A stretch of 64,000 nucleotides of DNA from a phage: the sequence record PV419677.1, one strand, 5' to 3'. Positions within the stretch are counted from its first letter, which is position 1; every line of letters starts with the position of its first letter. Position numbers and translations under genes: made by a program. Positions 1,000 through 58,312 of this stretch are shown one piece after another. The notes under the pieces are model-generated. The model was not told where the DNA came from, did no database searches, and saw only the letters and a program-made list of their open reading frames with translations.

Positions 1000-1671
1000 T
1001 TACTTTTTATTTAAAGCGCATTTATCACGATGACGTTTTAAATGATTTATAGATGTTTCATATCCACATAAATCACAAATAGCTCTTGGTAATTTTTTAC
1101 CTTTAAACCCTTTGGGATGGATATTATCAGGGTTTGAGTAACGACGCTTAGCAGAATCACTAAGAGTTTTTATCACTTCATTACCTCTGATGTTATTTAT
1201 TTTATCATCTTTTTCATAAAAGCGATTTAGGCCTTCAGAAATTGATTTCTTATGCTCCATACTTTTTGGAACATCTTTTTGTGCTTCCGAAATACATTTA
1301 TTTGTATGTGCGGAATTTTTCATTCCATATCTTGGAGCACGTTCACCAGCACCACCGAATGCACCACGAGCCGTTGCTTTATTAAAGAATAGCGGGGATT
1401 TTGGTATATTATAATGGGCGTGGTACCACTCTTCCTCGTCCAAAACATCTTCGCAGACATCAAGTATTTTGATTGTCGGCTTTTCGAGTTGAATAGCTTC
1501 AAGAAAATCAGGTTGCTCACAGGAGGACCAATATTCTCTTCTTGACGTGTATTTCAAATCAATTATAACACCATTTTCAAAAGCACAATTATGCTTTGAC
1601 CCAATGTAAAAATAAGGAGGCGTTTTATTTTTCAGACGAGTTTCAAATGTAAACCAATACACAACATTCAA
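1000..1671 (-). CDS. GIY-YIG homing endonuclease, SegG-like (free-standing)
   Basis: 223 aa; N-terminal VVYWF...YFYIGSK resembles GIY-x10-YIG; located between 32 and 59 where T4 carries segG. Confidence 0.6.
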   Translation of the reverse strand: MNVVYWFTFETRLKNKTPPYFYIGSKHNCAFENGVIIDLKYTSRREYWSSCEQPDFLEAIQLEKPTIKILDVCEDVLDEEEWYHAHYNIPKSPLFFNKATARGAFGGAGERAPRYGMKNSAHTNKCISEAQKDVPKSMEHKKSISEGLNRFYEKDDKINNIRGNEVIKTLSDSAKRRYSNPDNIHPKGFKGKKLPRAICDLCGYETSINHLKRHRDKCALNKK

Positions 1672-2321
1672 AACTTACACCCTTTAACAGTCTCAATGAA
1701 CAATTTACGGGCTTCAAGAGAATCGATATTTAAGATTTTCTTATAAGCATTTAGTTTAGTTGAATACTTTTCCCAAACCAAGTCGTTAGTCTGTTCATCA
1801 TGTTTATTTATAATGCCTAAAAATGAATCAAGCAAACAAAACGTTTCAAATGAGATAACATTCGATTGGAGAAGTTTGAAAATATAACTTGTGTTTACTT
1901 TAGTATTATACTCGAAAATCTCTTGAAGCGATTTGACTTCGACTTTCTTACTGAAGTAATAGATATTCTTTATATCATCTTCGTATACTTGTTTAATTCT
2001 TTTAAGTCTGCCAATGTATTCTCGATAAAATATCAGAGCATCAGCATCGCTTATATCACCTATCCATGCATCCTGGTTCGCGACCAGGTTTGACATGAAT
2101 ATTAACGTTAATTCTTTGAGAGTGTACTTATCACTAAGCTTTTCGAAAAAATACTTATCGCGACGTTTTTGATAAGCACTATCGGAGATTCGCATGGTCC
2201 AGTTATATTTGATAATATCATAACGACCCGAAAAATGCTGTTTGATGGATAAGTACAGTTGATATACTGATTTACCATTTATGTATCGGTTGTTATTTGG
2301 AGGCATGCGAATCGTAATCAT
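1668..2321 (-). CDS. 59: helicase loader gp59
   Basis: 217 aa, same length as T4 gp59 and matches recalled sequence; stop/start overlap with upstream ORF. Confidence 0.9.
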   Translation of the reverse strand: MITIRMPPNNNRYINGKSVYQLYLSIKQHFSGRYDIIKYNWTMRISDSAYQKRRDKYFFEKLSDKYTLKELTLIFMSNLVANQDAWIGDISDADALIFYREYIGRLKRIKQVYEDDIKNIYYFSKKVEVKSLQEIFEYNTKVNTSYIFKLLQSNVISFETFCLLDSFLGIINKHDEQTNDLVWEKYSTKLNAYKKILNIDSLEARKLFIETVKGCKF

Positions 2322-6900: not shown

Positions 6901-7866
6901 GGTAATGTTGCTGTATTGAACAACCTCAGCGCCGGAAACGATGTTCAAGCCAAAAATAATTATGTTCTAAATGGTCGTACTATCGCAACTACGACGGGTG
7001 AAGTTTCTGGTGCAACTTTGTCTCTGGGTGATAACTCACAGAATTTAGTGCTCAAAACTCTTGATGCGGGTAATATCATAGCAAATGGTGGTGGTGCATT
7101 TAAAGTTCTGACCGAGAAAAACGCAGTAGAAATTGTTGATAGAAACTTTGTTAACCAGGCTGGTGATACAATGTCTGGTGTACTCCGTGTAAATGCTCCG
7201 GTCCGTGTATTTGGTACAAAACCGAGTCTTATTGCACAAGCTCCGACTGCTGATACTGTTGGTTTCTGGTCTGTCGATATCAATGATGAACCGACTTATA
7301 GTCAGTTCCCTGGCTATTGGACAATGAAGTTAAAACGTCAAGTAAACATTGATACGGTTCAAACTAAACCTGCTGGGGTAACTGATGAAGTTTGGAATGC
7401 TTCTGGTTGGTTAACTGAAAACGGAACTTTTGCCTCGCCCGCTATTCGTTATCGTACTGATGATGGTACACTCGGTGATGAAGTATTAGGTAGCTCCGGG
7501 CAGAAACTGCGTGGAACCTGGTTTGACTATTCAGTTCGTGACAAACAAATTAAATATCCTGGTACATTGACTCAGTTTGGTAATACGCTGGATTCGTGCT
7601 ATCAAGATTGGGTTTGTTATCCAACTGAATTGAACGGTGGTACTATTCGTTATACTCGTACGTGGCAGAAAAATAAATCTGCATGGACGACTTTCGCAAT
7701 GGTTTATACCGCGGATAACCCTCCGTCTGCAGAGGATGTTGGTGCATTACCAGCCGATAACACAACGATGGGGAACTTAACCATTCTTGATTGGTTGCGT
7801 ATCGGTAACGTGCGTATCATCCCAGACCCGACCACTAAATCCGTTAAGTTTGAATGGATTGAATAA
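3910..7866 (+). CDS. 34: long tail fibre proximal subunit gp34
   Basis: 1318 aa (T4 1289 aa); long collinear match to recalled gp34 incl. repeated ...RRGIARIATTAQ... motifs. Confidence 0.95.
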   Translation: MADILKPAFRATSGLDAAGEKVINVAKADFSVLSDGVNVDFFIEENTIQQYDATRGYKKDFAVIYDNRIWVSQREIAEPAGPFVQQYWTATRTDPKWETVASPTRQLSSGEFIAVDSAASFTTFTLPPNPTDGDTIVIKDIGGNTGYNEIKIQSSNVPGQGNQKIVRFGNQYSEVLITKPFSYNMLIFSNRLWQFWEAGNEERGIRVEPSTGRFHAQAGDFIMRRYTTGAPITFILPKYANQGDIVKSVDIDGMGPTFHLMVETFDTSSSLGKAGQHQMEFRTTGDGFFVYDAAEKLWHVWDGDFKTRLRVIRDSVKLLPNESVIVFGEDNSTPATINIDLPTDVLQGDIVKIALNYLRKSQTVNIRAAVGDKIATDIKLLQFPKRSEYPPDTTWVMVDSLTFNGNISYTPVIELSYAEDAVSGTSYWVVAQNVPTVERVDSLNDSTRTRLGVIALANQTQANVDHENNPEKELAITPQTLANRVAKENQRGIARIATTAQVNQNSDFAFVDDVIISPKKLNERTATETRRGLAELATQQETDAGVDDTTIITPKKLQARQGSESLSGIVTYVSTTGATPAASRELNGTNVYNKNTVNLVVSPKALDQYKATYTQQGAVILAVESEVIAGTSQSGWANAVVTPEMLHRKTALDSRIGLIEIATQVETDAGTDYTRAVTPKTLNDRKASETLTGIAEIATQSEFDTGTDDTRISTPLKIKNRFNNTARTSVNALSGLVETGTLWDHYSLNILEANETQRGTARLATQGEVNTGTDDKTIVTPLKLMSKKATENAEGIVRIATNAEATAGTSKVLAISPSALKYIAQTETTWEASETLRGFVRLSSGAATSAATTTTGAGFTYENGVYTPDPSKLVSYAKSGYAVSPYELNRVLQNFLPINAMAVNAEKLDNLDSTQFIRRDIAQTVEGVLTLTKQTNISAPVVSTSTAVFTDVTAGTSTFGTVNVVNGTNKWKITAPSAGTTMTIGDTTNVLTLNTASGNVAVLNNLSAGNDVQAKNNYVLNGRTIATTTGEVSGATLSLGDNSQNLVLKTLDAGNIIANGGGAFKVLTEKNAVEIVDRNFVNQAGDTMSGVLRVNAPVRVFGTKPSLIAQAPTADTVGFWSVDINDEPTYSQFPGYWTMKLKRQVNIDTVQTKPAGVTDEVWNASGWLTENGTFASPAIRYRTDDGTLGDEVLGSSGQKLRGTWFDYSVRDKQIKYPGTLTQFGNTLDSCYQDWVCYPTELNGGTIRYTRTWQKNKSAWTTFAMVYTADNPPSAEDVGALPADNTTMGNLTILDWLRIGNVRIIPDPTTKSVKFEWIE

Positions 7867-9728: not shown

Positions 9729-12700
9729 ATGGCTACTTTAAAACAAATACAATTTAAAAGAAGTAAGGTTGCCGGCGTTCGTCCGGCGCCAACAGTTCTT
9801 GCTGAAGGTGAACTGGCTATCAACCTGAAAGACCGCTTACTTTTTACTAAAGATGACACCGGCGCCATCATCGACCTTGGTTTTGCCAAAGGTGGTAATA
9901 TCGATGGTAATGTTATTCATAACGGTAATTACAATCAAACTGGTGATTATACCCTGAATGGTACTTTTACCCAAACTGGTGATTTTAATTTAACCGGCAT
10001 TGCTCGTGTAACTCGCGATATTATTGCCGCGGGTCAGATAATGACTGAAGGTGGTGAACTTATTTCTAAGAGTGCATCGACTTCGCATCTTCGTTTTTTT
10101 GATGGTGCATCACGCGAACGCGGTATTATCTTTTCTCCTAACAATGCGGGTTTGACAACTCAGGTAGTTAATATACGAGTGCAAGATTATGCCGCTGGTA
10201 GCGAAAGCACTTACGCGTTTTCAGGCAATGGTCAATTTACTTCACCTGAAGTATCAGCATGGAAATCTATTTCATCCCCACAAATTCTGACTGATAAAGT
10301 TATTACAAACGGGAAGAAGGCCGGCGATTATGATATCTATTCATTAGCAAATAATAATTCTAACACAGATAAAAATAATTTACGTGTTGTGCGTACTGAT
10401 GCAGCCGCCGCAATGCTCCATGAAATTTGTGAAAATAACGGTATCAGTTGGTATTCTGGTTCAACCCCTACTGATTATATGTTATCTTTTGCTTATTCAG
10501 GTGGTTTTCAAGCTGGGCATTCGATTGCAGTGGGTATGGAATCAGGGCCTATGACATATTCGGCCTTAGGTAAGGGTTCTATTGCTCTTGGTGATAATGA
10601 CACCGGGTTAAAATGGCATCAGGATGGATATTTCTTTAGCGTTAATAACGGCACAAAAACTTTCCTTTCTGGGCCGGCAGAAACCACCAGTCTTAGAAAA
10701 ATGGTTATGGGTTATTCTGTAAACGGTACCGATTTAACCACTCCTCCGTCAGAAAACTATGCTTTGGCTACTGTTGTTACTTACCATGATAATAACGCGT
10801 ATGGTGACGGTCAAACTCTTTTAGGTTATTATCAAGGCGGTAAATATCATCACTATTTCCGTGGTAAAGGTACAACAAACATTAACACCGCAGGTGGACT
10901 ATTAGTTACTCCAGGCAATATTGACGTGATTGGCGGTTTAATTAATATCAACGGTCGTAGTAATGCTTCAACCCTATTGTTTAGTAGCTATACGTCAGGT
11001 CAAAGCTCTGTCGATAATATGAATATACGTGTTTGGGGCGATACTTTTACTACTGTAGGTGGTACTCGCAAAAACGTAATGGAAATTTCTGACGCAACTA
11101 GTTGGATGAGCTATATTCAACGAACAACTGCAGGTAAAGTCGAATCTGTTATAAATGGCACCCAGATTGTTAATGAAAACTTGACAGTAGTAAAAAATGC
11201 TACATTTGATGGTACAATCAGCGCAGCCGGCGAAATCGCGACAAATGCTGTAAATGGTCTTCGTATTTGGAACAATGATTACGGTGCCATTTTTAGACGT
11301 TCAGAAGGAAGTCTTCATATTATTCCTACAGCATTTGGTGAAGGACAGAATGGTGATATCGGTCCACTTCGCCCGTTTAGTATGGCTTTAGATACCGGTA
11401 AAGTTACTATTCCAGATTTACAATCAAGTTACAATACGTTCGCAGCAAACGGCTATATTAAATTTACTGGACATGGTGCAGGTGCAGGCGGTTACGATAT
11501 TCAATATGCACAAGCAGCTCCTGTTTTCCAGGAAATCGATGATGATGCTGTAAGTAAATATTATCCTATTGTTAAACAGAAGTTTTTAAACAGTAAAGCT
11601 GTTTGGTCTTTAGGTACTGAAATTAATTCGGGAACATTTGTTTTACACCATATCAAAGAAGATGGTTCACAAGGCCATACATCAAGATTTAACGCTGATG
11701 GTACAGTTAACTTTCCGGATAACGTTCTGGTCGGCGGTGATATTAACACGAAAGGCGTGTTGACTTTTGACGCCGGACGTTTAGGATCACAAGATTATTT
11801 TAAATTTAACCATTTGGGTGATAGTAATAATGCTCGTGATAACATCATCCAGTTAGAAGATAGTCAAGGCGCTCATTTTTCCACTGAACGTACTTTAGCG
11901 ACAGGTGCAATTAAAACTCGTTTCTTTGGCGAAATATCCACTGATGGTACATTATACCTAAATCAGATGAATAATAGCTCTGAACGATTCTCTATTAATA
12001 ATTGGGGAAATTCAGAAGTTGGTCGCGCGGCAGTGATGGAAGTCAAAGATTCCAAAGGTTATCACTTCTATACGGAACGCAGGACAGATAACAGTTTGAA
12101 TTTTGATGTTGCTGGCAATTTTACTGCGCATGGACCTTCCGGAATAACCATCAAAAACTCTGCTGGCGCTCGCCACATCTGGTTTAAAGATAATAGCGAA
12201 TCGGAAAAGGCTGTTATCTGGGCTACAGATGAGGGTATTTTACATATACGAAATAATTATGGGGGTTCATTTAGTCATCACTTCCAGGGTGCAATGATTC
12301 TAGCGGGAGAGAGTGTTCCATATAATGGTGAATACGCTCTTATCCGTGGTAATATTTCCGGTGGTGCATGGTCAGACTGGCGTAACCGTCCGGCTGGATT
12401 GTTGGTAGACTGTCCGGACTCACGAAACCAAGCATATAACATTTGGAAAGCTACTCATTGGGGCGAACAGCACCTTGCGGCGATGGGTATTCATGCTGGC
12501 GGTGGTAATCCTCATGTTATATTGCATGTGGGTGGGAATGATTTTGGATTTGGATATAACGGTGATTTTGCTGCTAGTGCTGCTGTATATTGTAACGACG
12601 TTTATATTCGTTCTGACCGTCGTCTGAAAATTAATGTTGAAGACTACGAAGAGAATGCGGTGGATAAGGTAAATAAACTCAAAGTTAAAACCTATGATAA

Positions 12701-12965
12701 AGTTAAATCTCTTTCTGACCGCGAAGTTATCGGCCATGAGATTGGTATTATCGCACAGGATTTGCAAGAAGTATTACCGGAAGCTGTTAGCACTTCTAGT
12801 GTCGGATCTCAGGATAACCCAGAAGAAATTTTAACAATTTCAAACTCTGCTGTGAACGCGCTTTTAATTAAGGCCATTCAGGAAATGAGCGAAGAAATTA
12901 AAGAATTGAAAACGCCTCTCTTTACTAAAATTGCTCGCAAAATTAGTAAATATTTTAAATTCTAA
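9729..12965 (+). CDS. 37: long tail fibre distal subunit gp37 with C-terminal intramolecular chaperone domain
   Basis: 1078 aa; last ~115 aa carry SDRRLK...[17 protein letters not shown] motif typical of self-cleaving chaperone (peptidase S74-like) domains, as in T2-type gp37. Confidence 0.9.
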
Positions 12966-13000
12966 CAACAAGGGGGAAATGCCCCCTTTGGAGTATAATT

Positions 13001-13801
13001 ATGGCAGTAGTTGGAGTTCCTGGCTGGATTGGAAGTTCAGCCGTAAATGAAACAGGACAACGATGGATGAGTCAAGCGGCTGGTCAATTAAGATTAGGTG
13101 TTCCTTGCTGGATGAGTCAATTTGCAGGTCGCTCAAGAGAAATTATTCACACGCTTGGAGCAGACCACAACTTTAACGGGCAATGGTTCCGCGACCGTTG
13201 CTTTGAAGCCGGTAGTGCGCCTATTGTTTTTAATCTTACAGGTACATTAGTATCTTATACCCGTGATGTTCCATTGTTCTTTATGTATGGGGATACTCCA
13301 AACGAATATGTTCAATTGAATATTGGTGGTGGGGTTCATATATGGGGCCGAGGTGGTCAAGGTGGATGGACCCACTCGGGTGGCGATGGCAACGGGCAAT
13401 GGGGTGGAACTTGTATTGTAAATGATATTGGCGGTCGTTTAAGAATTAATAATGGTGGGGTTATCTGCGGCGGTGGCGGCGGCGGTGGCGGCATCGCTTA
13501 TCGTCCTCACTCTGGTGCAAACTGGCAAGATATTGGTGGCGGTGGAGGAAGACCATTTGGCCTAGGCGGCGGTGGTGGATATTCAGGTGGCGGAGCTTCT
13601 TTGGATGGTCCAGGAGGTGGTTATCAATACGGAAATGCCCACTCTGGTCATGGTGGGGATGCCGGCGGAGCAGGTCAGAATGCATGGTCTGACGGTGGTA
13701 AAGTTCTAAAAGTCGGCGCTGGAGGCGGCGCAGGAGCTGCTGTTGCTGGAAGTTCTCCTACTTGGCATAATACAGGTGTTATCTACGGTTCCTGGCTATA
13801 G
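13001..13801 (+). CDS. 38: T2-type tail fibre adhesin gp38 (Gly-rich motifs flanking variable segments)
   Basis: 266 aa; conserved N-terminus, then multiple poly-Gly blocks (GGGGGGGG, GGGGG) separated by short variable segments. Confidence 0.85.
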
Positions 13802-21270: not shown

Positions 21271-21537
21271 TCAAAATATCACCTCTTTTATTTCAATCAG
21301 ACCTCGGTACAATGCAGTGCGAAGGTCATAAAGAATATCTATGCCATCAACATTATCCAGTTTTCCATCAATAAGCTTTTTTAAATCTTCCTTTGATGCA
21401 ATCAATGGACGAAGAAATTTACAATCAGAAAGAGACAATTCTGTGGTAACATCATCACCATCACCTGACGCATCATACATAGCGGCAACAACCATACCTG
21501 TAACTTTGTGTTTGGCGTAGTATAATTTAATATCCAT
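21271..21537 (-). CDS. hypothetical protein
   Basis: 88 aa from ATG at 21537 with GAGGA Shine-Dalgarno. Confidence 0.45.
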   Translation of the reverse strand: MDIKLYYAKHKVTGMVVAAMYDASGDGDDVTTELSLSDCKFLRPLIASKEDLKKLIDGKLDNVDGIDILYDLRTALYRGLIEIKEVIF

Positions 21538-21547
21538 TTTATTTTCC

Positions 21548-21703
21548 TCATGCATAACGATTGTATGTATTTTTGCGACACGCGTAAAATTGACGCTCAG
21601 TAACTGCAAAACTTTTTCCACGTTGTTGCATTAATTTAAAAAATTCAGTAATATCGCCATTAACTTCAAGGTATAAAGTCATTGCATATTGAGCAGGTTT
21701 CAT
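21548..21703 (-). CDS. hypothetical small protein (51 aa)
   Basis: ATG with GGAGA Shine-Dalgarno just downstream of a type B cassette. Confidence 0.35.
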   Translation of the reverse strand: MKPAQYAMTLYLEVNGDITEFFKLMQQRGKSFAVTERQFYACRKNTYNRYA

Positions 21704-22951: not shown

Positions 22952-23161
22952 TTATTCACCAAAATAAGAGATACGAGTTGCCAGTACATGAGCATAAGCG
23001 CCCATCGCATCCAACTGGGCAATCAAAAGACCTTGTTGACGAGCATCGAGAGTTTCAAAAACTCCACCCTTAATAAACTCTTCAAGAGCATTAATTTTCA
23101 AAACCAGCTGGTCATATTCTTCAACTACACGTGCTTGGAAACCTAACATTTCTTTAGACAT
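22952..23161 (-). CDS. hypothetical protein
   Basis: 69 aa. Confidence 0.4.
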   Translation of the reverse strand: MSKEMLGFQARVVEEYDQLVLKINALEEFIKGGVFETLDARQQGLLIAQLDAMGAYAHVLATRISYFGE

Positions 23162-23645
23162 TGTGTTCTTCCATATATTTTAATCGAGCTTCATTTGCTT
23201 CTTCTGGAGTTGCAAAAGCTCCGACTTGAATTTGTTTTTTATTTCGCATAATAGTGGCTCGCCATGGTTTATTCAAAGCTCGTTTATCAAACGAGACTCC
23301 TTTAAATCCAGACTTGTTGTTATTATACGGGCGCTTATTTAAAGCATTCTCGCCTGGACTAACCCATCTGCAGTTATCGGGAGAGTACCCTTTATCGTTA
23401 TCTGTTCGGTCAAGTTGATGTTTGTCAGTGGGTCGTGGCCCCATATCTGTATAAAATCTTTCAAAATCATGCAGCCATTCATCGCAAACAGTGATACCCC
23501 GACCGCCATATCGAGAATAACTAATATGTGTTGGATTGCAACACCGAGCTTTCATGCCAATCCATACAATGTATTCAGGCGTGTGACCTAGCCCGTGGAC
23601 AATACCACGAGCCGAGCCATCTTTAGCAATTGTTTGTTTAATCAT
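23154..23645 (-). CDS. HNH homing endonuclease with AP2 DNA-binding domain
   Basis: 163 aa; HNH-like ...LDRTDNDKGYSPDNCRWVSPGENALNK; AP2-like SGFKGVSFDKRALNKPWRATI...AFATPEEANEAR. Confidence 0.7.
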   Translation of the reverse strand: MIKQTIAKDGSARGIVHGLGHTPEYIVWIGMKARCCNPTHISYSRYGGRGITVCDEWLHDFERFYTDMGPRPTDKHQLDRTDNDKGYSPDNCRWVSPGENALNKRPYNNNKSGFKGVSFDKRALNKPWRATIMRNKKQIQVGAFATPEEANEARLKYMEEHNV

Positions 23646-42635: not shown

Positions 42636-42874
42636 TATTTTAATGCATCTTCCAGATAAATTTTGCGGAATTTGCGTTTTGTCTGACGAATCTGACGCTT
42701 GGTAGGTTTCACAGGAAATTCGAAGAACTCTACGTATTCTTGTTCATAATCATTGTGGCCGACTGAAAGAACTAGTTCCCAGCTGCTTACGGTGCGTTGG
42801 ATAAACATATTATGCTTACCAAAAGATTTATTCCAAAAAGAACTAGGGGTAGGTTTCATTAATGTGATATTCAT
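42635..42874 (-). CDS. hypothetical protein
   Basis: 79 aa. Confidence 0.45.
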   Translation of the reverse strand: MNITLMKPTPSSFWNKSFGKHNMFIQRTVSSWELVLSVGHNDYEQEYVEFFEFPVKPTKRQIRQTKRKFRKIYLEDALK

Positions 42875-43081
42875 TTAAATTTCCTCAATGCGGCGGGCAT
42901 CATATTCAAAAACTTTATTGTCATTAACAAAGGCTTTAACCAGCGCATTATTCACTTCTGCATACTGCACTGTAACCCATTCAATCATATTTTGGTCACT
43001 AACATCCAGCGCGGTTTCTTTGGTAAACATATTACCATTTTCAAACCAACCAATAAATACTACGTTTTCTAATTTATACAT
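42875..43081 (-). CDS. dmd: Dmd antitoxin (discriminator of mRNA degradation)
   Basis: 68 aa; VVFIGWFENGNMFTKE...QYAEVNNALVKAF matches recalled T4 Dmd (60 aa). Confidence 0.8.
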   Translation of the reverse strand: MYKLENVVFIGWFENGNMFTKETALDVSDQNMIEWVTVQYAEVNNALVKAFVNDNKVFEYDARRIEEI

Positions 43082-47857: not shown

Positions 47858-48864
47858 TTAAAAATCAAACATATCAAAAAGAGATGCTTTTTTCTCGTAA
47901 TCAACCTTAGCTGCTTCAGAGAACCCTGTTAACGGTTTGACAAAAGTCTTCTGGAACAGTGTGTTGTAGTCCATCCACTGCAAGACTTGGTCACGGATTT
48001 CAATCGGGAGTTCAATCCCAGATGGCCATGCAATCACGGTTTCACCAAACGGGTTGCCGACTTTAAGAGGAAGTACATACACCTTTTCCCCTTCCATGAT
48101 TTGTGGAACAGTCTTCAGACCTTTAGTTGCACGCATATATGCAAGCACACCTTTGATATGAGCCGGGCACTTAAATCCAGGGAAACCACCCTCATTATAT
48201 TTCTGAATGTTGTTAACCGATGATACACCTGCGATGGTCATGTAGTTAAGCTCATTAAATTCCTTATTGAATTCCTTGAAGTATGTCTGCAGAGATTCTT
48301 CACCTTCTTGCAGCATGCGACGGATACATTCTTTCAGAGCTTTCTGACATGCTTTTGGTGTGCTCGACTTTTGAGTTTCCAGACCCATGATTTTCAGTTT
48401 CGGAACAGCATATCGTGTGCCTTCCATATCGTACACATTCAGAGCATAACGCTTCTTCGCTGTCCAGAATCCACCAACACCTTTAGAACCAAGCGGAGGA
48501 CATGCAATCGCTTCACGGTCCATAAACATAAGGTGCTGTTTGTTGTTCATGTATTCAGCCAGTTCACGGAAAGCTTTATCGATTGCCGGTTCCAGACGGT
48601 CTTTCGCAAACTTGTCCATGAAGTCAACCAGGTGGTTTGTATCGCGGAATTTCGATTCGCCACCAACCTTTTTAATCAGGTTATCGCACTGGATATAAAT
48701 GGAGTCAGTATCGCCATAGAATACATATGTTTCACCACTTGTACCACAAACACTATCAAAATATTCGTTAACTTTACGCTCAATCCACTGCAATGCAAGT
48801 TGTCCGAAAGATGTAATCGCGGTTGCATTTCGCAGGTCAAAGTAACGGAACCAGATATTTCCCA
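47858..48864 (-). CDS. 43: DNA polymerase gp43, subunit 43B exon 2 (motif C YGDTDS to C-terminus)
   Basis: frame begins GNIWFRYFDLRNATAI..., contains YGDTDS; collinear with T4 gp43 residues about 560-898. Confidence 0.8.
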
Positions 48865-49095
48865 CAATTTTGTTCAGTTGAAGTCGTTAATTTCAACCCG
48901 GAATTATATCCAGCTGCATGTTGCCATGCAGAGCAGACTATATCATCATCTTTCGATGCCATGCGCTTCCAGCCACTTGGCTGTACTCCTTTCGGATAGT
49001 CGTTGCACGTTCCTATAATAGGCTTCGCTCAGGATTGTCTCATAGAGATGTCCCCTGAATTCACATGGTTTAAAGTGCGCCGGAATACTTGGTTA
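48865..49095 (-). mobile_element. candidate ORF-less group I self-splicing intron in gene 43
   Basis: 231 nt between ...CYGA/L and GNIW...; P1 (exon GUGCGU : intron GCGCAC, U.G at splice site), P7 (GACUA / UAGUC within GAUAUAGUC), GNRA hairpin, terminal G; splicing restores frame. Confidence 0.55.
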
Positions 49096-49267
49096 ACGCA
49101 CCATAACAACTGTTGATAAGCAATTTGCGGTTAATCTGTGCAGTATTTGCCGCAATTTCTGCCATTTGCGAATTATGCAAATGACTTTCCAAATCCGCCC
49201 TTGATAATGTTTTTAAATATGCAATTTGCGAATCATCAAAATCTATATTATAATCAATATTCATCAT
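49096..49267 (-). CDS. 43: DNA polymerase gp43, subunit 43B exon 1 (motif B region)
   Basis: MMNIDYN...NRKLLINSCYGA matches T4 gp43 around KILINSLYGALG; ATG overlaps stop of the homing endonuclease gene. Confidence 0.7.
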
Positions 49268-50082
49268 TTATTCCTACAGTTATCAAAATGCCAACGTTTC
49301 ATGCCTGCTAATATACCTTCTTTTCCACAATGTGGACAAACTGCTTTAACCTCTTTTGCTTGTTTCCAATATTCCTTTCTGGCATCAGAAATAGCTTGAT
49401 TGTGTTCATCTGAATTTTTGTGTCCCAATCTGGTTTTAACGATATCTGGATTTTTAGCAACACGTTCTTTCATAAACTCAGATTTCGCTGCACGCATTTC
49501 TGGTGTCCAGGCATCGGAGCATTTTTGTTTGTGGTCGTCGGATATAGTTCCATTTTTCAGCACAGACTCATTGTTCTTATAATGTTCAATTAAACTTTGT
49601 GAACGTTTTTGACAAGTTTCTACCGAGTGTTTTGTTCCAGTATTTTTAATTGAGGCGATTTTAAAATTATCAATTGAAATTTTATTGTAATAATCTGGAT
49701 TTTGGGCCCGGGTATATTTGATACTATCGGAAACCTTTTTGGCAACTACTGGATTATGCATCGCATTTGGTAAATTTAAAGAATTGACATAATCCCACCC
49801 ACCTTTACCACCTGGGGTTAAATTATATGTGTCAGTACGTGTGATAAATTCATTATCAACTAATTTGGCTTCAAGTGCATATGCATCATCTTCGTTATCA
49901 AATTCAGCAATGATTGATTTGACCAGGTTATGCTTGCCATATTTTTCTTTCGCAGCTTTCACAATGGGACCCGAACCCAGATAATCATCCAACAAATTAT
50001 AAGATTCACATTTATGAACTCCAATGTAAATCTTATCGTTCACTAAATTTTTAATTTGATAAACAGTGTATACATTTTTCAT
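49264..50082 (-). CDS. GIY-YIG homing endonuclease inserted in gene 43
   Basis: 272 aa; VYTVYQIKNLVNDKIYIGV GIY-YIG motif, NLTPGGKGG, C-terminal zinc finger CPHCGKEGILAGMKRWHFDNC. Confidence 0.8.
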   Translation of the reverse strand: MKNVYTVYQIKNLVNDKIYIGVHKCESYNLLDDYLGSGPIVKAAKEKYGKHNLVKSIIAEFDNEDDAYALEAKLVDNEFITRTDTYNLTPGGKGGWDYVNSLNLPNAMHNPVVAKKVSDSIKYTRAQNPDYYNKISIDNFKIASIKNTGTKHSVETCQKRSQSLIEHYKNNESVLKNGTISDDHKQKCSDAWTPEMRAAKSEFMKERVAKNPDIVKTRLGHKNSDEHNQAISDARKEYWKQAKEVKAVCPHCGKEGILAGMKRWHFDNCRNK

Positions 50083-50094
50083 AATGTCTCCTTA

Positions 50095-50135
50095 ATTTAA
50101 AAATATTTTAGCGCGCTTCCTTGCGCTTGTACAAC
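50095..50135 (-). promoter_or_regulatory. promoter-like element for homing endonuclease gene
   Basis: minus strand GTTGTACA...TAAAAT then GGAGA Shine-Dalgarno inside 53-nt spacer between 43A stop and endonuclease ATG. Confidence 0.35.
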
Positions 50136-51659
50136 TTAAAGATGGTTTAAAAGGTCTTTAATCAATTCACTATTACGTTGTGCCGCCAACATCTTTTTCT
50201 TTTCGGTTTTTCGTTGATTAAAAACTTTCTCAACTTCTGTCGGAATAATACCTGCAACATCTTTAAAATACATCATGCCATTTGGAGCACAACTAAATGT
50301 ATCAGATGGACGGTCAGCAGTTCCTGCGATGTATTCATACATCGGCGCAGGAGCAAATGAACCGGCAATCGTTTCTGGACTGATGTTAATCTGTCGGATG
50401 ATGCTCGGATACAGAGATGTCAAGTCACAGCTCATAACGTATTTGTATGCGTTCGGAATCGGTTCCTTAACAAATGCACCAGGGAATGATTGACGAACAT
50501 GCGATTTGGTTTCCGGAATGACTTTGTTTTGAGTCTTCAGGCTGTTAAAGATAATCGCATCCCAAGTTTTGATTGGGCTGAATACAGACTGAATCTGCAT
50601 TTTTGCGTAATAACCCATTGACTGGCTAAGGTTAATAAACTGGCGCTTACGGTCAATCTGTACAACACGATAAACATCGATGATGTTATAAGAAATATAC
50701 CGTTGGTGATTTGATTCACGCAGTTTAGAAATCGGACCATCATACGGGAGTTTACCAACACCCAGCTCAGATTCCGCAACATAATCCAACGAATAAGACG
50801 GTTGGTTTGTGAAGCTGAACTTTTTATACAGGTCCAGATAATCCAGAACAGAGATACCCAGAATCTGAATGATTTCTTGTTCTTCACCAAAGCCGTTGTT
50901 AATTACTTTAACTTTTGTACGACGATGTGGGCTCAGACGTTTTGCTGTGGCTTCACCAAATACATTTTTAAGGCGGTTGTAGATATACGGAATATCAAAC
51001 TTCTCGATGTTCCAACCAGTTAACATAACCGGAGTTTTCTCGTTCCAGAATACCAAATACTGCTGGAGCATTTCTTCTTCTGAATCGAAAGCCATATAAA
51101 CAATTTTTTCCAGGATTTCTTCAGGGACTTCATCGCCGCCATCTTCTTGCAGCTTGGCAGCAATATCAATAGACCATTGCTCCACAGTGGCGTATGGTGA
51201 GCTCAAAAGGTCAAAGACATAGAATTTATCGTCTACCGAATCATAGTGCGTCAGGGCATCAATAGGGTGACGTGCTTCAGACGGCTCAGGGAACCCATCC
51301 GGAGATGTCACCTCGATATCGAAGTTAGCCACACGGATTTTACTTGAATCGTATTTGATTTCGTGTGGATAACGGTCGGACAAGTATGCGAGTTTAAAGT
51401 CATCCATACCCATAGCTTCGAGACCCATGTCATTCATTCGCTTCATCCACTGGGATGCATCACGCATGGAATCGAATTCTTTTTTCACACAACCTTTATT
51501 ATAGATGTCTGTATACTTTGCAGCCTGGTCTTCGCGAGCATGCATAAACAAGCATGGAGCATAAGGGATTTCACGAACACGTTCATGACCATTCTTGTCA
51601 ATGTATCGTTCAAGCAGATTGTCACCGATTTGTTCGATAGTTAAATAAAATTCTTGCAT
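50136..51659 (-). CDS. 43: DNA polymerase gp43, subunit 43A (exonuclease and palm motif A)
   Basis: 507 aa; collinear with T4 gp43 N-terminal about 510 residues incl. FDIEVT, SLYPSIIRQ; ends with stop before the motif B region. Confidence 0.9.
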   Translation of the reverse strand: MQEFYLTIEQIGDNLLERYIDKNGHERVREIPYAPCLFMHAREDQAAKYTDIYNKGCVKKEFDSMRDASQWMKRMNDMGLEAMGMDDFKLAYLSDRYPHEIKYDSSKIRVANFDIEVTSPDGFPEPSEARHPIDALTHYDSVDDKFYVFDLLSSPYATVEQWSIDIAAKLQEDGGDEVPEEILEKIVYMAFDSEEEMLQQYLVFWNEKTPVMLTGWNIEKFDIPYIYNRLKNVFGEATAKRLSPHRRTKVKVINNGFGEEQEIIQILGISVLDYLDLYKKFSFTNQPSYSLDYVAESELGVGKLPYDGPISKLRESNHQRYISYNIIDVYRVVQIDRKRQFINLSQSMGYYAKMQIQSVFSPIKTWDAIIFNSLKTQNKVIPETKSHVRQSFPGAFVKEPIPNAYKYVMSCDLTSLYPSIIRQINISPETIAGSFAPAPMYEYIAGTADRPSDTFSCAPNGMMYFKDVAGIIPTEVEKVFNQRKTEKKKMLAAQRNSELIKDLLNHL

Positions 51660-52331: not shown

Positions 52332-52910
52332 TTACCATTCCAATATTTGTTTTTTAATTTCTTTTTGTTCTTTCACATTACTGGTAACGGTCTTTAAGAA
52401 TTCATCCGTCACCAGACCTTTTGTCTTTTTCAAAACATCTTTAAGACTACCTTTGGCTTTCAATGTTTCCATATACATCAAAGCATCATCTGCATTAATT
52501 GTATAATATTTCATTAAAAGCTTTAACACAAGCTGGACGCTGACTACATCCGGCTCAGCCTTCGCCCATTTACCATAACGCTTGCCTTGCGGAACTGCAT
52601 GCAGCAAATAATTATAATGCTGTTGGTCTGTTAACCCGGAACCGATTAAGTTCATCACGTTTACCTGCATGATGCAATCGACATGTTGGCTCAACGCGTT
52701 TTCCAACCAGAATTTATTGTAGTTTTCCGATTGAATCAGGTTCCGTGGTTTTTTGCTAACGGTTATGTCATTAAGAATCGCAAACAATTCATTTTCTGCT
52801 TTCTCTTTGTATGAATCGGACAATTCCTGAATTTTGTTAAAGTCGCGTGATTTCCACGCAACCTCATGTTCGTTTAATTGAACGTCATCACCAAAGAGAC
52901 TTACAGCCAT
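52332..52910 (-). CDS. 62: clamp loader small subunit gp62
   Basis: 192 aa (T4 187 aa); synteny regA-62-44. Confidence 0.85.
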   Translation of the reverse strand: MAVSLFGDDVQLNEHEVAWKSRDFNKIQELSDSYKEKAENELFAILNDITVSKKPRNLIQSENYNKFWLENALSQHVDCIMQVNVMNLIGSGLTDQQHYNYLLHAVPQGKRYGKWAKAEPDVVSVQLVLKLLMKYYTINADDALMYMETLKAKGSLKDVLKKTKGLVTDEFLKTVTSNVKEQKEIKKQILEW

Positions 52911-53893
52911 TTCATTTCCCCAGCCAGTTGAGCAAACAGATAAGTCAAGTGAACTTCGGTATTGGCCGCAATGCCATGGTACTGATTATTCTCACCTACA
53001 ATCTCATACATGCGGATGATACTTGCACCAGTCAGTTTGCCATACATTTCATCAGCCAGCTTTGCAATGAAGCTTGAATAATCATTTGCATGCTTAGGAG
53101 CCAGACCACGGAGAACTTTAAAGTTACGGTCCTTAAGGGCATCAATCACATCATCAATTGGCGTGCGATTGTTTGTCACGATACTCAGAATACCAGAATC
53201 GATAACACCCTTTGCAGAGTAACGGTCAAGCTCGTTAATTGTCTTACGCAGGTCCGGGAAGTTATGCTTAACCAGAGCAGCAACAACTTTCAGGTCTTCG
53301 ATTTCAACGCCTTCGTTTTTACATATCGCAACCGCACGATGAATCATCTCTTTCATCATAGTAGTCTGGTCAGCTGGAGTTGCTTCACCAAACTTAATTA
53401 CGCGACAACGAGACTGCAACGGAGTAATGATGCCATCGATATTGTTCGCGGTCATAATGATTGAACAGTTGCTCGAATAAGCTTCCATAAAGCTACGGAG
53501 GTGTCGTTGTGATTCTGCCAGACCTGCACGGTCGAACTCATCGATAACAATTACCTTACGGCGACCTTCGATTGATTTGGATGATGCAAAGCGAGTCAAT
53601 TCATTACGCACAAAGTCAATTCGGCAATCGGAGCCGTTAACAAACAGCATATCAGAATTCGTATCTGCGCACATAGCTTTTGCAACTGTTGTCTTACCAG
53701 TACCAGGGGAACTACTGACCAGAATCAAGTTAGGAATCAAACCTTTTTTAACAATCGCCTCTAATGTTTCTTTATCGTGAGCCGGGAGAATACACTCTGA
53801 TAATGTACCTGGGCGGTATTTTTGTTCCCACATGAAGTCGGATTCGTTGACTGTCAAACCGTTAATTACTGTTGCCATTATTATTTTCCTCAT
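52901..53893 (-). CDS. 44: clamp loader large subunit gp44 (AAA+)
   Basis: 330 aa (T4 319 aa); Walker A SPGTGKTT. Confidence 0.9.
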   Translation of the reverse strand: MRKIIMATVINGLTVNESDFMWEQKYRPGTLSECILPAHDKETLEAIVKKGLIPNLILVSSSPGTGKTTVAKAMCADTNSDMLFVNGSDCRIDFVRNELTRFASSKSIEGRRKVIVIDEFDRAGLAESQRHLRSFMEAYSSNCSIIMTANNIDGIITPLQSRCRVIKFGEATPADQTTMMKEMIHRAVAICKNEGVEIEDLKVVAALVKHNFPDLRKTINELDRYSAKGVIDSGILSIVTNNRTPIDDVIDALKDRNFKVLRGLAPKHANDYSSFIAKLADEMYGKLTGASIIRMYEIVGENNQYHGIAANTEVHLTYLFAQLAGEMKWL

Positions 53894-54440
53894 TAAATTT
53901 TTTAACTATTTTATTCAATTCATTGGCTGAATAATTATACCCATAGTTCCGCAAAAGCGTACTGAACTTACCGCGCTTTGGTTTATCCAGCTCTATCCAA
54001 ATTTTTAACAGTTCATCATAGTGATTCCAAACTTCAGAACGCTGCCATAACGAACAATTCAATTTATGTGTTTTACTAAATGTTCGAGATACACCAGTAC
54101 GTGATTCAGACATTTGTCTACGAGTTTCTTCTGTATGAAAATCAACTCCACCATTACCGCCTGGATGAACATTAACACATTTATTTCCATATTCAATAAG
54201 ACCTTTGGCAACAATCAAAGATTCATAGTGTTTAGCTTCTTTGAAAGTTTTTACTTCTTTAATAATTTTTGTATCGAATAACCAAAGCCCAGGAATTAAA
54301 TCATTTTCTTTTCGACAAGCTTTAATAAACGTTCCACTGCCGTGATATTCTTCACCGGTCAAACGATGTCTACCAAAATAATGATAAACATCGTTTGATG
54401 CAGTATTTGTTATTTTTGTATGATAACAAATGTATGACAT
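53862..54440 (-). CDS. putative GIY-YIG (Seg-like) homing endonuclease between 45 and 44
   Basis: 192 aa from ATG at 54440 (GGAGA Shine-Dalgarno); SYICYH...VYHYFG and VHPGGNGG resemble Seg-family motifs; overlaps gp44 start by 32 nt. Confidence 0.5.
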   Translation of the reverse strand: MSYICYHTKITNTASNDVYHYFGRHRLTGEEYHGSGTFIKACRKENDLIPGLWLFDTKIIKEVKTFKEAKHYESLIVAKGLIEYGNKCVNVHPGGNGGVDFHTEETRRQMSESRTGVSRTFSKTHKLNCSLWQRSEVWNHYDELLKIWIELDKPKRGKFSTLLRNYGYNYSANELNKIVKKFNEENNNGNSN

Positions 54441-54471
54441 TTTATTCTCCATGGGGCCGAAGCCCCATTTA

Positions 54472-55167
54472 TTAATCTTGGAATTCGTGGCTAGAGCCTT
54501 GTTCCATCGCAATCACATAGCTTGCTTGTGTGCCTTCAAACTTCGTAGCAAATTTATCATCTTTCGCCCAAAGCATAACACGGTAATCAGCCGGAATCAT
54601 TTTCATGTTCAGTTTGTTAATGATAAATTTAAACGCTGCATCGCCTTCGTAGTCGCCACATACCAGGGAATACAATGGACGTGCTAATTCTTTATCTTCG
54701 AGCTGGTTATAACCATGGATAACAATCTTACCGTCTTTGTTGGTGATTGCAAAGGTGTCCAGAGACAAACCACCAGCCACACGCAGAAGCTGCTGCAGGT
54801 CACTACCTTTCAGGTCGAAAATAACCTTAGCTACCGGGAAAGGAATCTTTTTAGCAGGGAACACGATAGTGCTCGGGTCTGCAGCTGGCCAGTGAATCGT
54901 TGAACGTTGGTCTTTGATAATGATGTTTGATGCGTCTTCAGCCAGAGATACTTCAGCTTGGTCAGTTACCAGGCCCAGGATACTTAAGAAGCCGTTCAGG
55001 TCATAAATCGCAGCTTCAAAGTCAATTGTATCATTGATTTCGGCTTCGCCATATGACGCTCCAGTTACGGAACGAGTCAGGATGGTATTACCTGGCTTAA
55101 GCATAATGCCAGAGTAAATGGAAGTAAAGTTTTTCAATACCGCGATTGTGTCCTTTGAGAATTTCAT
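54472..55167 (-). CDS. 45: sliding clamp gp45
   Basis: 231 aa (T4 228 aa); N-terminus MKFSKDTIAVLKNF...IYDLNGFL matches recalled gp45. Confidence 0.9.
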   Translation of the reverse strand: MKFSKDTIAVLKNFTSIYSGIMLKPGNTILTRSVTGASYGEAEINDTIDFEAAIYDLNGFLSILGLVTDQAEVSLAEDASNIIIKDQRSTIHWPAADPSTIVFPAKKIPFPVAKVIFDLKGSDLQQLLRVAGGLSLDTFAITNKDGKIVIHGYNQLEDKELARPLYSLVCGDYEGDAAFKFIINKLNMKMIPADYRVMLWAKDDKFATKFEGTQASYVIAMEQGSSHEFQD

Positions 55168-55232
55168 GTAATTACCTTTTATTCAATATTCAGTTAATGA
55201 GAATTAATTATACAACGTTTATTAACGTGCAG

Positions 55233-55658: not shown

Positions 55659-55663
55659 TTCAA

Positions 55664-55882
55664 TTAATCAAAGTATTCATATGCGAACCAGGCATTGTGT
55701 CTGTTCGCGATTATTTTAACATATTCTTCACCGAAAGCGTTTTGCAAGTCACGTTCAGTGACAAGGTGTTCATCTTTCGAAAAGGTATTAACTAACACAT
55801 ACCGTTTAATTTCAGGGACAGCCAGTAAATGCTGCCCGGTTAAAAAATTGCTCATAAATAATATTATCCGTTGCAGTATCAA
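55664..55882 (-). CDS. hypothetical protein
   Basis: 72 aa. Confidence 0.4.
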   Translation of the reverse strand: MILQRIILFMSNFLTGQHLLAVPEIKRYVLVNTFSKDEHLVTERDLQNAFGEEYVKIIANRHNAWFAYEYFD

Positions 55883-55895
55883 ACAAGGGTCTGAT

Positions 55896-56612
55896 ATGAA
55901 TTATAACATCATTTACCAAAAGCTTATTAGCAGAGCATTGAATCGCAAATTAACCACATACTCTGAAAGCCATCACATTATACCCCGTTGTATGGGTGGG
56001 GCTGACGACGCTTCAAATCTTGTTGATTTAACTCCCGAGGAACATTTCGTTTGCCATCAACTGTTGGTCAAAATGCATCCAAATAACGCTTCTTTGGTCT
56101 ATGCCGCGCGCATGATGACAGTTTCTGCACCAAATGCCGACAGAAGCAAAAATAAATTATTTGGATGGCTTCGTCGTAAAAACTTGGAAGCTCAACAAAA
56201 TAAAATTTTCTCCGATGAAACCAGAAAGAAAATGTCAGAATCCGCCAAATTAAAACCGAGAGTCGAATGTCCACACTGTGGAAAAACCGGTCTCGCTGGC
56301 AATATGAATCGTTGGCATTTTGATAACTGTTCCAAAGGTCCAAACAAGGTTGTTCATACTATTCCGGAAAAGCAAAAGCAAAAAATTTCAGTAGGTTTAA
56401 AACAAGCTAAACATGAAATTTTAAATTGTGAATTTTGCGGGCTTGAAGGTAAAAAGTGTGTTATATCCACTCACCGACAATTCTGCAAATCCAATCCAAA
56501 CCGGAAGAAAAAGGTGGACCCCAAAATTCAGTGTCCACACTGTAATGTAGTCAGTACGCCAGCTAATATGAAACGTTGGCATTTTGATAACTGCAAAATG
56601 AAGCCTCAATAA
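55896..56612 (+). CDS. HNH homing endonuclease with two C-terminal zinc fingers (mob-like)
   Basis: 238 aa from ATG at 55896; HNH core SHHIIPRCMGG...NLVDLTPEEHFVCH; two CPHCG...RWHFDNC fingers; plus strand amid minus-strand genes. Confidence 0.75.
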   Translation: MNYNIIYQKLISRALNRKLTTYSESHHIIPRCMGGADDASNLVDLTPEEHFVCHQLLVKMHPNNASLVYAARMMTVSAPNADRSKNKLFGWLRRKNLEAQQNKIFSDETRKKMSESAKLKPRVECPHCGKTGLAGNMNRWHFDNCSKGPNKVVHTIPEKQKQKISVGLKQAKHEILNCEFCGLEGKKCVISTHRQFCKSNPNRKKKVDPKIQCPHCNVVSTPANMKRWHFDNCKMKPQ

Positions 56613-56617
56613 GAGGC

Positions 56618-58312
56618 TCATTCCAGAACAGTAAATCGACCGACTTTTTTCATTTGAAGATGCTGTCCATATGCTTCTGGGTCATGGTCTCGGTGACTGA
56701 TGATAAACACGTTTTGACCTTCCAATTTATTGATAATTGCCTGGATAGCTTTGATGCCTTCGGCGTCAGTGGCTGAATCCATGACCTCATCCAGAATCAA
56801 CGTACTAATTTGCACACCAGATACTTTCGCAGCAATATCGCGCCATGTAAACAGCAATGCAATATCTATACGAGCTTTTTCACCCTGGCTAAATGATGCA
56901 TAGCTAAAGTCTTCACGTCCACGAGATTTAATCGTTTCGTTGAACTCTTCATCTAACGTAAAGCTATAATCAGCTTCCATAACTTTAAGATAAGCGTTTA
57001 TCTGCTTATTAAAGATAGGAATATATTTCTTAATAATCGCGCCCTTAATACCAGAATCTTTCAACATATCCGTTAGGATACCACGTTGATATTTTTCCAT
57101 CACAAGGTCGGATTTCTGTTTGACTATTTTATCAAGCTGGTCTTGGAGCATTTTAATGTCTGCTGCATGGTCAATGAATTCCGACTTGGCTTGCTCGATT
57201 AATGCTTTAACCTTTTTAGCTTTTTCGACAGTCTGGACTAAGGTTTGTTTCTTAGTTTGAATGTCTTGAGCTATTGTACGCTGGTTTTGTCTTGCCTTGG
57301 TATACGCATCAAATTGCTCCTGAACAACATTCTGGCGAGCTTTATGCTTATCAGCCGAAGCATTACATTCTTCAATCTTTGACTCAATCCTGGCGACAAT
57401 AGGGTCTCCTGGATGCAACTGACTGGCACAGGTCTGACAACAACCACCTTTCTCGTACAGACCAACAACCTTTCGATAATCGTCAATCTTCGACTTAATC
57501 AGGAATGATTCTTGCTTTAACTTCGTGAGTTCATGCTCAGGGTCTTCTCCCAAGATTATCTCGGTCAGTCTTGTCGTTGCTTCTTCGATAGTTGTCTTGA
57601 TTCCACGTGCTTCTGTGGCAAGTTCATCATACATCGTTTGCAGTCGCAACAGATTATCGCCTGACAATTTTCTTTGACGGTCTTCGTTGTCCTGATAGAT
57701 TTTAATCTGTTGAACAATACCATCATGCTGCACATCCATCACCTGGATTTGGCTATTGACTTCGCGGATAAGAGATTTGTTCAACTTATCCATATCGGCC
57801 AGTACAGAAACCTCTAAAAGGTCTTCGACAAGCTTTCTTCTGGCAGGAGTGGATAGGCCCATAAAAGGGGTATATCCAGCTGTGCCGAGTACGACAATTT
57901 GTTTGAAACTGGCGTATGACATTCCGATAAGCTGTTCAAATTCCGCTTGGAAGTCTTTACTGCTGGCAGATTCATCAAGACGTTTACCGCCACAAGAGAT
58001 TTCAAAAACATTGGGTTTTTGCCCGCGTTTGATATAGTATTCTTTTCCATCATATTCCATCCACAATTCAACGAGCATATCTTTTTTGTTGCTCGAGTTA
58101 ATCAGCTGACCTTTCTTTACATCACGGAAAGGCTTACCGAACATAGCAAAGGTAACCGCTTCAAGGAACGTAGATTTACCTGCGCCATTCTTGCCGGTGA
58201 CCAGAGTTTTCTGAACTTTATCCAGTTCAACAGTAATCGGTTGAGCACCAACCGACATAATATTTTTATAGATAACTTTCTTAAGCTTAAAAGTCTTCAT
58301 CGTAATAAGCAT
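56618..58312 (-). CDS. 46: recombination endonuclease subunit gp46 (Rad50-like)
   Basis: 564 aa (T4 560 aa); Walker A GKNGAGKST. Confidence 0.9.
   Translation of the reverse strand: MLITMKTFKLKKVIYKNIMSVGAQPITVELDKVQKTLVTGKNGAGKSTFLEAVTFAMFGKPFRDVKKGQLINSSNKKDMLVELWMEYDGKEYYIKRGQKPNVFEISCGGKRLDESASSKDFQAEFEQLIGMSYASFKQIVVLGTAGYTPFMGLSTPARRKLVEDLLEVSVLADMDKLNKSLIREVNSQIQVMDVQHDGIVQQIKIYQDNEDRQRKLSGDNLLRLQTMYDELATEARGIKTTIEEATTRLTEIILGEDPEHELTKLKQESFLIKSKIDDYRKVVGLYEKGGCCQTCASQLHPGDPIVARIESKIEECNASADKHKARQNVVQEQFDAYTKARQNQRTIAQDIQTKKQTLVQTVEKAKKVKALIEQAKSEFIDHAADIKMLQDQLDKIVKQKSDLVMEKYQRGILTDMLKDSGIKGAIIKKYIPIFNKQINAYLKVMEADYSFTLDEEFNETIKSRGREDFSYASFSQGEKARIDIALLFTWRDIAAKVSGVQISTLILDEVMDSATDAEGIKAIQAIINKLEGQNVFIISHRDHDPEAYGQHLQMKKVGRFTVLE

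Follow-up and report, generated by a model that had tools for sequence, protein, structure and literature searches.

A probable Seg-type GIY-YIG homing endonuclease gene at the gene 45/44 junction of a T4-like Gaprivervirus, and four further endonuclease genes in the same window

The gene between the sliding clamp and the clamp loader

The window analysed here, i.e., the whole stretch of 64,000 nucleotides of phage record PV419677.1, comes from a T4-like Gaprivervirus (Straboviridae). By megablast, its best matches are vB_YenM_P8 (P8), MN01, VR20, and SP18 (95-97% identity), and no record covers it in full. On the minus strand, its genes follow the T4 order (32, a segG-like gene, 59 ... rIIB, rIIA ... 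uvsX ... 43, regA, 62, 44, 45, rpbA, 45.2, 46, 47). Between gene 45 (sliding clamp) and gene 44 (clamp-loader subunit) lies an additional open reading frame (ORF), which is our main subject (Table 1). The initial annotation, made from the letters of the sequence, had placed there a Seg-like GIY-YIG gene overlapping the start of gene 44 and had counted five homing endonuclease genes in the window. Both statements were borne out: the ORF between 45 and 44 (hereafter, the 45/44 ORF) belongs to PHROG 314 and overlaps gene 44, and all five ORFs lie at or very near the positions first proposed, with PHROG family matches of E=5e-17 to E=1.6e-67. When the whole window was compared with SP18 by local blastn, inserts specific to the window were found at 23150-23651, 48865-50154, 53894-54440, and 55847-56619, and each of them holds one candidate endonuclease gene.

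A four-way alignment of the window, VR20, SP18, and P8 delimits the insertion at the 45/44 junction. An insert of 547 bp takes the place of around 15 bp of the 45-44 spacer; VR20 carries a 99% identical insert, annotated as "hypothetical protein", while SP18 and P8 present an empty site, as do 10 other relatives. At its 3' end, the ORF reads through the native ribosome-binding site and start codon of gene 44, and its stop (53862-53864) falls 14 nt past the gene-44 ATG (53876-53878), which creates an overlap of 17 nt (53862..53878). At its 5' end, it begins immediately 3' of the gene-45 hairpin, where a Shine-Dalgarno motif precedes its ATG; another in-frame ATG upstream (54450..54452) falls inside the hairpin stem. 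We ruled out the hairpin as a classical terminator since its sense strand lacks a U-tract, and a hairpin masking the ribosome-binding site of the ORF was also rejected, the only candidate being a marginal pairing that extends the gene-45 hairpin. A scan for sigma-70 promoters and terminators around the gene returned no more sites than shuffled sequence.

Several lines of evidence identify the encoded protein as a GIY-YIG nuclease. It matches PHROG 314 (E=5e-17) and resembles, across the catalytic region, the Pfam-positive GIY-YIG enzyme of the gene-43 region of the same window (BLASTP, E=6e-5); tblastn reveals a remote similarity to SegA (28%) and SegE (26%). A word-indexed homologue search yielded just 3 relatives, and an exhaustive HMMER search was required to find more (69). 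In an alignment of 44 relatives, residues Y6, Y21, G23, Y32, G34, G36, and N90 do not vary, and E73 is conserved in at least 90%. Position 24 is R in our protein and K in the consensus and most of these relatives, 7 of which match Pfam GIY-YIG (PF01541), 4 PF19835, and 23 NUMOD3. We take the catalytic residues to correspond, by position alone, to Y6, Y17, R27, E75, and N90 of I-TevI. The structure model predicts the nuclease fold with high confidence, in the strand-strand-helix-strand-helix order typical of GIY-YIG domains, with I-TevI as the best structural match, and its C-terminal helices match helix-turn-helix domains. The GIY-YIG nuclease thus occupies residues ~1-95 and is followed by a linker, where NUMOD3 matches weakly, and by the helix-turn-helix domain at the C-terminus. 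Because it joins a nuclease, a linker, and a helix-turn-helix DNA-binding domain, we assign the protein to the I-TevI/Seg architecture. The catalytic residues, the separate DNA-binding domain joined by a linker, and the free-standing insert expected of a Seg-type enzyme are all present.

We consider it probable (around 85%) that the 45/44 ORF is an intact, functional, free-standing Seg-type GIY-YIG homing endonuclease gene in the 45/44 spacer of a T4-like Gaprivervirus. It resembles SegA-SegG of T4 and I-TevI in its three-part protein, and the T4 seg genes in its free-standing position in a spacer between conserved genes and in its patchy distribution among relatives. On the other hand, no named Seg occupies the 45/44 junction, where T4 itself presumably has no endonuclease gene. 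The protein also differs from the T4 Seg enzymes in having diverged beyond the reach of the GIY-YIG and SegE_GIY-YIG models of Pfam and in showing no zinc finger in its sequence, and its ORF in bringing no stop codon of its own and terminating inside gene 44.

The distribution of the gene indicates mobility. A metagenomic allele (L019) is ~84% identical to that of the window (i.e., 14-16% different), while the flanking genes 45 and 44 are 96-97% identical; the allele being far more diverged than its flanks, the gene must have a history separate from that of the backbone. Between these two alleles, the ratio of nonsynonymous to synonymous substitution rates (dN/dS) is 0.07, with a dS of 0.81. 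Dhakavirus phages (e.g., MX01 and Bp7) carry homologues at the same 45/44 junction, with 55-64% identity. With homologues at this junction in two genera and so low a dN/dS, neither this ORF nor the other endonuclease ORFs can be put down to chance. The gene also travels in different company. VR20 has it without the HNH gene and the split gene 43 described below; a 27-kb contig (L020) has an identical copy, again without HNH or split gene 43; and P8 has the HNH gene only. From these differing combinations, it follows that the elements assort independently.

Two side observations concern this junction and its neighbour. The weakest homologue (55%), in vB_EcoM_005 (MK295203; L007 1204..2640), has no DNA-binding part left at its C-terminus and continues in frame into gene 44; the record annotates both together as a single 478-residue "clamp loader". 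Either the copy is decaying or the assembly is at fault; a truncated copy fits the cycle of gain, decay, and loss of homing elements. In Escherichia virus TH15 (MT446392; L011 2008..2895), a different ORF of 295 residues, with GIY-YIG-like N-terminal motifs discernible by eye, lies between rpbA and gene 45. If it were counted, the 46/45.2, rpbA/45, and 45/44 junctions would all be endonuclease insertion sites in the genus.

Table 1. Features of the window, in coordinates counted from its first letter
Feature	Coordinates	Strand	Evidence or remark
Putative free-standing Seg-like GIY-YIG homing endonuclease gene (45/44 ORF), 192 aa, N-terminus M-S-Y-I-C-Y-H	53862..54440	-	
Insert proper, 547 bp, without own stop codon	53894..54440	-	Four-way alignment and local blastn gap
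Native gene-44 translation-initiation region (ATGAGGAAAATAATAATG...), doubling as last 10 codons and stop of the 45/44 ORF	53862..53893	-	Identical in empty-site SP18 and P8
GGAG Shine-Dalgarno, 5 nt before the ATG (54438..54440) of the 45/44 ORF	54446..54449	-	Sequence
Stable hairpin GGGGC-UUCG-GCCCC, just 3' of gene 45 stop	54451..54468	-	Also in empty-site genomes
Gene 45 (sliding clamp), upstream neighbour	54472..55167	-	Pfam families in contig L020
Gene 44 (clamp-loader subunit), downstream neighbour	52901..53878	-	
45.2	55664..55855		
Cistron 43A, 507 aa, N-terminal part of DNA polymerase	50136..51659	-	
Free-standing GIY-YIG gene between 43A and 43B, seg43(25) homologue; stop overlaps 43B start (ATGA)	49264..50082	-	Pfam GIY-YIG
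43B exon 1	49096..49267	-	
Group I intron, 231 nt, without ORF	48865..49095	-	Rfam RF00028, 81.4 bits, E=3.9e-19
43B exon 2	47858..48864	-	SP18 homology resumes exactly at 48864
MobE-like HNH homing endonuclease gene, 238 aa, three C2HC zinc fingers, converging on gene 46	55896..56612	+	PHROG 655, E=1.6e-67
Gene 46 3' end, haplotype seen only in HNH genomes; candidate co-conversion tract and target region	56619..56840	-	43 fixed differences, 6 carriers vs 7 non-carriers
Left flank of HNH insert (45.2 5' end and upstream)	55800..55865	.	12 differences fixed between HNH carriers and non-carriers
SegG-like homing endonuclease gene between 32 and 59	1000..1671	-	PHROG 7504, E=1.4e-48; position as SP18 segG
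HNH-AP2 homing endonuclease gene between denB.1 and rIIB	23154..23645	-	PHROG 374, E=7.9e-59; Pfam AP2 E=2e-4, below cutoff

Proposed homing and its alternatives

The mechanism of homing is established (PMC2988022, PMC2993671), and we propose that the 45/44 gene follows it. Having no recognisable promoter of its own, the gene would be transcribed by read-through from gene 45 and translated from the GGAG site immediately after the gene-45 hairpin. During co-infection with a relative free of the gene, the enzyme would bind through its C-terminal helix-turn-helix domain and cut both strands at the empty 45/44 junction or close to it. The recombination-repair machinery of the phage (UvsX, gp46/47) would then mend the break using the carrier genome as template, by this way copying in the endonuclease gene. 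The other four endonuclease genes would act likewise.

Several points weigh against this reading. For the 45/44 protein, Pfam returns only a sub-threshold NUMOD3 match (E=0.009), NCBIfam gives no match, and the curated hidden Markov models (HMMs) for the nuclease (Pfam PF01541 and PF19835; NCBIfam) do not recognise it; searches of the PDB by sequence and by profile found no match either, nor did Foldseek. The counterpart of I-TevI R27 is a putative one, R24 being assigned by position alone. No carrier-specific haplotype, i.e., no trace of co-conversion, was found in ~1 kb of flanks of the gene among 13 Gaprivervirus genomes, only two of which are full carriers in this comparison. The T4 late promoter TATAAATA was not found near this gene, nor near the HNH gene or the gene-43 endonuclease. 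Lastly, every step from translation on, including cleavage and homing by all five endonucleases, is one that we infer. The initial annotation had proposed that HMM searches confirm the nuclease domains and that their failure would speak against nuclease folds. PHROG profiles support all five genes; Pfam and NCBIfam fail for the 45/44 ORF, whose fold is supported by PHROG 314, BLASTP, and the conserved residues.

A first alternative adds to homing rather than competing with it. The nucleases may be retained chiefly because they attack relatives that infect the same cell (marker or partial exclusion), in which case their own spread would be a by-product. Indeed, T4 partially excludes T2 with the help of at least three endonucleases encoded by genes of this kind (PMC2993671), and the genes of the window cluster beside replisome and recombination genes indispensable to a competitor. 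However, exclusion and ordinary homing share an identical biochemistry and sequence cannot tell one from the other; we regard this primary role as possible, on the unlikely side.

Far less likely is that the 45/44 ORF no longer homes, being a relic in decay or without nuclease activity or else a domesticated DNA-binding protein, and is kept only because its deletion would harm the overlapped initiation region of gene 44. The curated nuclease HMMs miss the protein, the truncated copy of vB_EcoM_005 shows that decay does occur in the family, and few Gapriverviruses have the gene (1 of the 12 database genomes compared), all of which a relic would accommodate. It would accommodate much less easily a dN/dS of 0.07 over the whole gene, the invariance or near-invariance of the catalytic Tyr, Tyr-Gly, Glu, and Asn in 44 relatives, and a nuclease fold predicted with high confidence; moreover, alleles only 84% identical in near-identical backbones point to recent movement. 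Least probable of all is an ancestral gene precisely deleted in most lineages without active homing, which agrees with flanks that are alike in genomes with and without the gene and with the occupation of the same junction in Gaprivervirus and Dhakavirus, but which does not predict an L019 allele differing by 14-16% between flanks differing by 3-4%, would need each deletion to restore the same ~15-bp spacer, and leaves aside the independent assortment of five endonuclease genes among near-identical genomes.

For an active homing endonuclease, which we prefer, the recognition site probably spans the insertion point if a carrier needs immunity to its own enzyme, given that the two carriers compared differ consistently from the non-carriers at the junction only.

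The other four endonuclease genes

The second GIY-YIG gene belongs to a composite element. SP18 gp43 is one protein of 904 residues, while gene 43 of the window is split. The initial annotation had seen a GIY-YIG in gene 43; the nuclease is confirmed by Pfam (GIY-YIG, 23.0 bits for a cutoff of 22.6) and PHROG 314 (E=2.7e-47), but its gene is free-standing between cistrons 43A and 43B, beside an ORF-less intron that had been missed. The spacer between 43A and the endonuclease gene measures 53 nt and has no significant structure (z = -0.75). The 5' splice site of the group I intron follows a U paired with G in P1 (GGUGCGU vs GCGCAC), and its terminal nucleotide is G. Splicing would yield ...NSCYGAL/GNIWFRY... 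(the slash marking the junction), collinear with SP18 gp43, the intron interrupting the polymerase motif NSCYGAL/GN. Beside this, the last part of 43A and the whole of 43B exon 1 (49096..50154, minus strand; ~204 bp in SP18) show no blastn similarity to the SP18 polymerase, yet encode the homologous segment; foreign polymerase sequence evidently entered with the cassette.

A cassette of this type is known from Aeromonas phage 25 (seg43(25) and intron 25.g43B; Petrov, Ratnayaka and Karam 2010, via PMC2988022, PMC2993671), in which 43A, a GIY-YIG endonuclease, and a 43B split by a group IA2 intron are annotated. The window has the same three parts in the same order, with the split at the homologous position, the GIY-YIG gene between the cistrons, a short untranslated spacer, a homologous 43B start, and an ORF-less group I intron within 43B. 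The window, phage 25, and the E. coli Mosigvirus G2285 have their introns at one and the same site, with identical junctions (TATGGTGCGT/TAA... and ...TG/TGGG) and compensatory changes in three stems, and the P1 pairing is the same in the window and phage 25. The endonuclease is 39.5% identical to the enzyme of phage 25 and 62.5% to that of G2285, whose cassette is the closest relative of that of the window and was left unresolved in the G2285 annotation. Unlike phage 25, an Aeromonas Tulanevirus, the phage of the window is an E. coli Gaprivervirus; its intron is shorter (231 nt) and lacks two peripheral insertions, and its spacer lacks a stable hairpin. None of the database Gapriverviruses of our collection has the cassette. 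The window is thus a new host for a known composite element, in which the intron is predicted to be spliced. In phage 25, seg43(25) is active on intron-free 43B and is predicted to mobilise the endonuclease-free intron, the intron is reported to self-splice, and the split polymerase is active (PMC2988022, PMC2993671). By analogy, the enzyme of the window most likely cuts intron-less 43B at NS(C or L)YGAL/GN, which would mobilise the neighbouring intron.

The third gene encodes an HNH enzyme. The initial annotation had the strand, opposite to that of the neighbouring genes, and the nuclease type right (PHROG 655, MobE-like), and its position between rpbA and 46 can be made more precise: the gene does not adjoin rpbA but lies between 45.2 and the gene 46 stop (56618). 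Over 105 residues, its N-terminal domain and RB3 MobE share 46% identity. The HH..N..H motif aligns with the HNH of McrA, and H26, H27, N41, H50, and H54 are invariant in 51 homologues; in the model, strands 24-27 and 42-45 and helix 47-60 form the strand-strand-helix metal motif. The Pfam HNH match is below cutoff (E=0.011). The gene is free-standing beside an essential gene, as is T4-type MobE, and likewise linked to a co-converted flank; on the other hand, MobE is found between nrdA and nrdB, and the C-terminal half of the window protein consists of three C2HC fingers, of a kind common to the gene-43 GIY-YIG enzyme. This module (CPHCG...RWHFDNC) occurs three times in the HNH protein and once at the C-terminus of the gene-43 enzyme (BLASTP, E=4e-11), and the segG-like protein ends in a related C2HC finger. 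HNH and GIY-YIG enzymes sharing such modules, it appears that DNA-binding modules are common to different nuclease families in one genome. A MotA-box middle promoter considered upstream of the HNH gene was rejected, its spacing being wrong.

For the HNH gene, presence/absence polymorphism is accompanied by divergent flanks, and this pattern across genomes is the best evidence that the gene moves. It is found in 6 of the 13 Gaprivervirus genomes, and homologues adjoin gene 46 in Klebsiella T4-like phages too. The haplotype of the gene 46 end, i.e., its last ~70 codons (~220 bp), is present in all 6 carriers and in none of the 7 non-carriers, and, apart from this tract and the left flank of the insert, no fixed difference separates carriers from non-carriers in 54500-57400. 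Between the Walker B and H-loop motifs, 12 residues and 28 synonymous codons distinguish the two gp46 C-terminal haplotypes. This divergent end looks like the result of co-conversion during homing, and its linkage to the gene suggests that the HNH target lies in that stretch of gene 46. The enzyme most likely cuts in these last ~220 bp and would carry along a resistant, divergent gene-46 end.

The last two genes are, as initially annotated, a SegG-like gene and an HNH-AP2 gene (Table 1). The SegG-like protein has no nuclease-domain match in Pfam or NCBIfam; we assign it to GIY-YIG because of its PHROG families and its position. Its N-terminal half is 87% identical to SP18 SegG, while the C-terminal, DNA-binding half (1000..1363, minus strand) is unrelated at the DNA level, which looks like a domain swap. 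We note a T4 late-promoter consensus TATAAATA in gene 59 (1805..1812, minus strand), 134 nt upstream of this gene and not found near the other four endonuclease genes. The HNH-AP2 gene is present in 5 relatives and missing from many. As in RB16, RB43, RB49, and JSE, an HNH nuclease is followed by an AP2-like DNA-binding domain, a category listed for T4 relatives in Table 5 of the 2010 census (PMC2993671). It differs from these in its sub-cutoff AP2 match and in its denB.1/rIIB location, specific to some Gapriverviruses.

Local HMM and phmmer scans of all 462 ORFs found no further endonuclease gene in the window. Two other inserts relative to SP18 (21297..21697 and 42642..42898) hold small ORFs only (116 and 79 residues), in which no nuclease motif is visible. 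In the long tail-fibre genes (34, 37/38), the blocks 6337..7543 and 9926..13797 are dissimilar to SP18, an expected host-range variation.

Endonuclease load and exchange among T4-like phages

Five endonuclease genes in 64 kb amount to 0.078 per kb, compared with 0.089 per kb in T4 (15 in 169 kb). The "unusually high load" of the initial annotation is right with respect to most T4 relatives; the density of T4 itself is about the same. In the 2010 census, T4 has 15 such genes, T6 11, RB3 8, and JSE 7, most genomes have two or fewer, and JS98 and RB69 have none (Table 5 of PMC2993671); T4 was called an outlier, and homing endonucleases are habitually placed beside conserved replication genes (PMC2988022). 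The window is richer in them than any database Gaprivervirus examined, SP18 having one. Sharing differs from element to element: the 45/44 gene is shared with VR20, the HNH gene with six records (most of the query, 95-99% identity), the HNH-AP2 gene with five phages, the segG-like allele with TH15 and VR7, and the gene-43 cassette with no Gaprivervirus. The combination of elements is new; their kinds are all known.

A broader scenario, which we put forward very tentatively and consider doubtful, would bring these observations together. The 45/44 gene would be the founder of an unnamed Seg type, with a recognition site over the gene-45 hairpin and the gene-44 initiation region, its translation would be coupled to that of the clamp loader and placed under RegA control, and replisome segments would have moved between T4-like genera. 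Translational coupling to gene 44 is suggested because the reading frame crosses the gene-44 ribosome-binding site and start codon, a region that in T4 contains the RegA operator. If this scenario were true, then, together with a gene-43 cassette common to Aeromonas, Mosigvirus, and Gaprivervirus phages, it would mean that homing endonucleases move replisome gene segments between T4-like genera. As of 2010, there was no convincing evidence for intron-borne homing endonuclease genes moving between such clusters (PMC2993671).

At the clamp/clamp-loader junction, our results expose an annotation gap. The family of the 45/44 gene is a "hypothetical protein" in every phage record examined, and the protein itself is not recognised by Pfam or NCBIfam; annotation as a GIY-YIG homing endonuclease is now possible for the family. 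The window also offers a natural co-conversion tract (the gene 46 end with the HNH gene), five independently assorting elements in one replication module, and a second E. coli phage with the polymerase cassette of phage 25. While leaving current understanding unchanged, it provides material for studying mosaic genomes and the exclusion of competitors by homing endonucleases.

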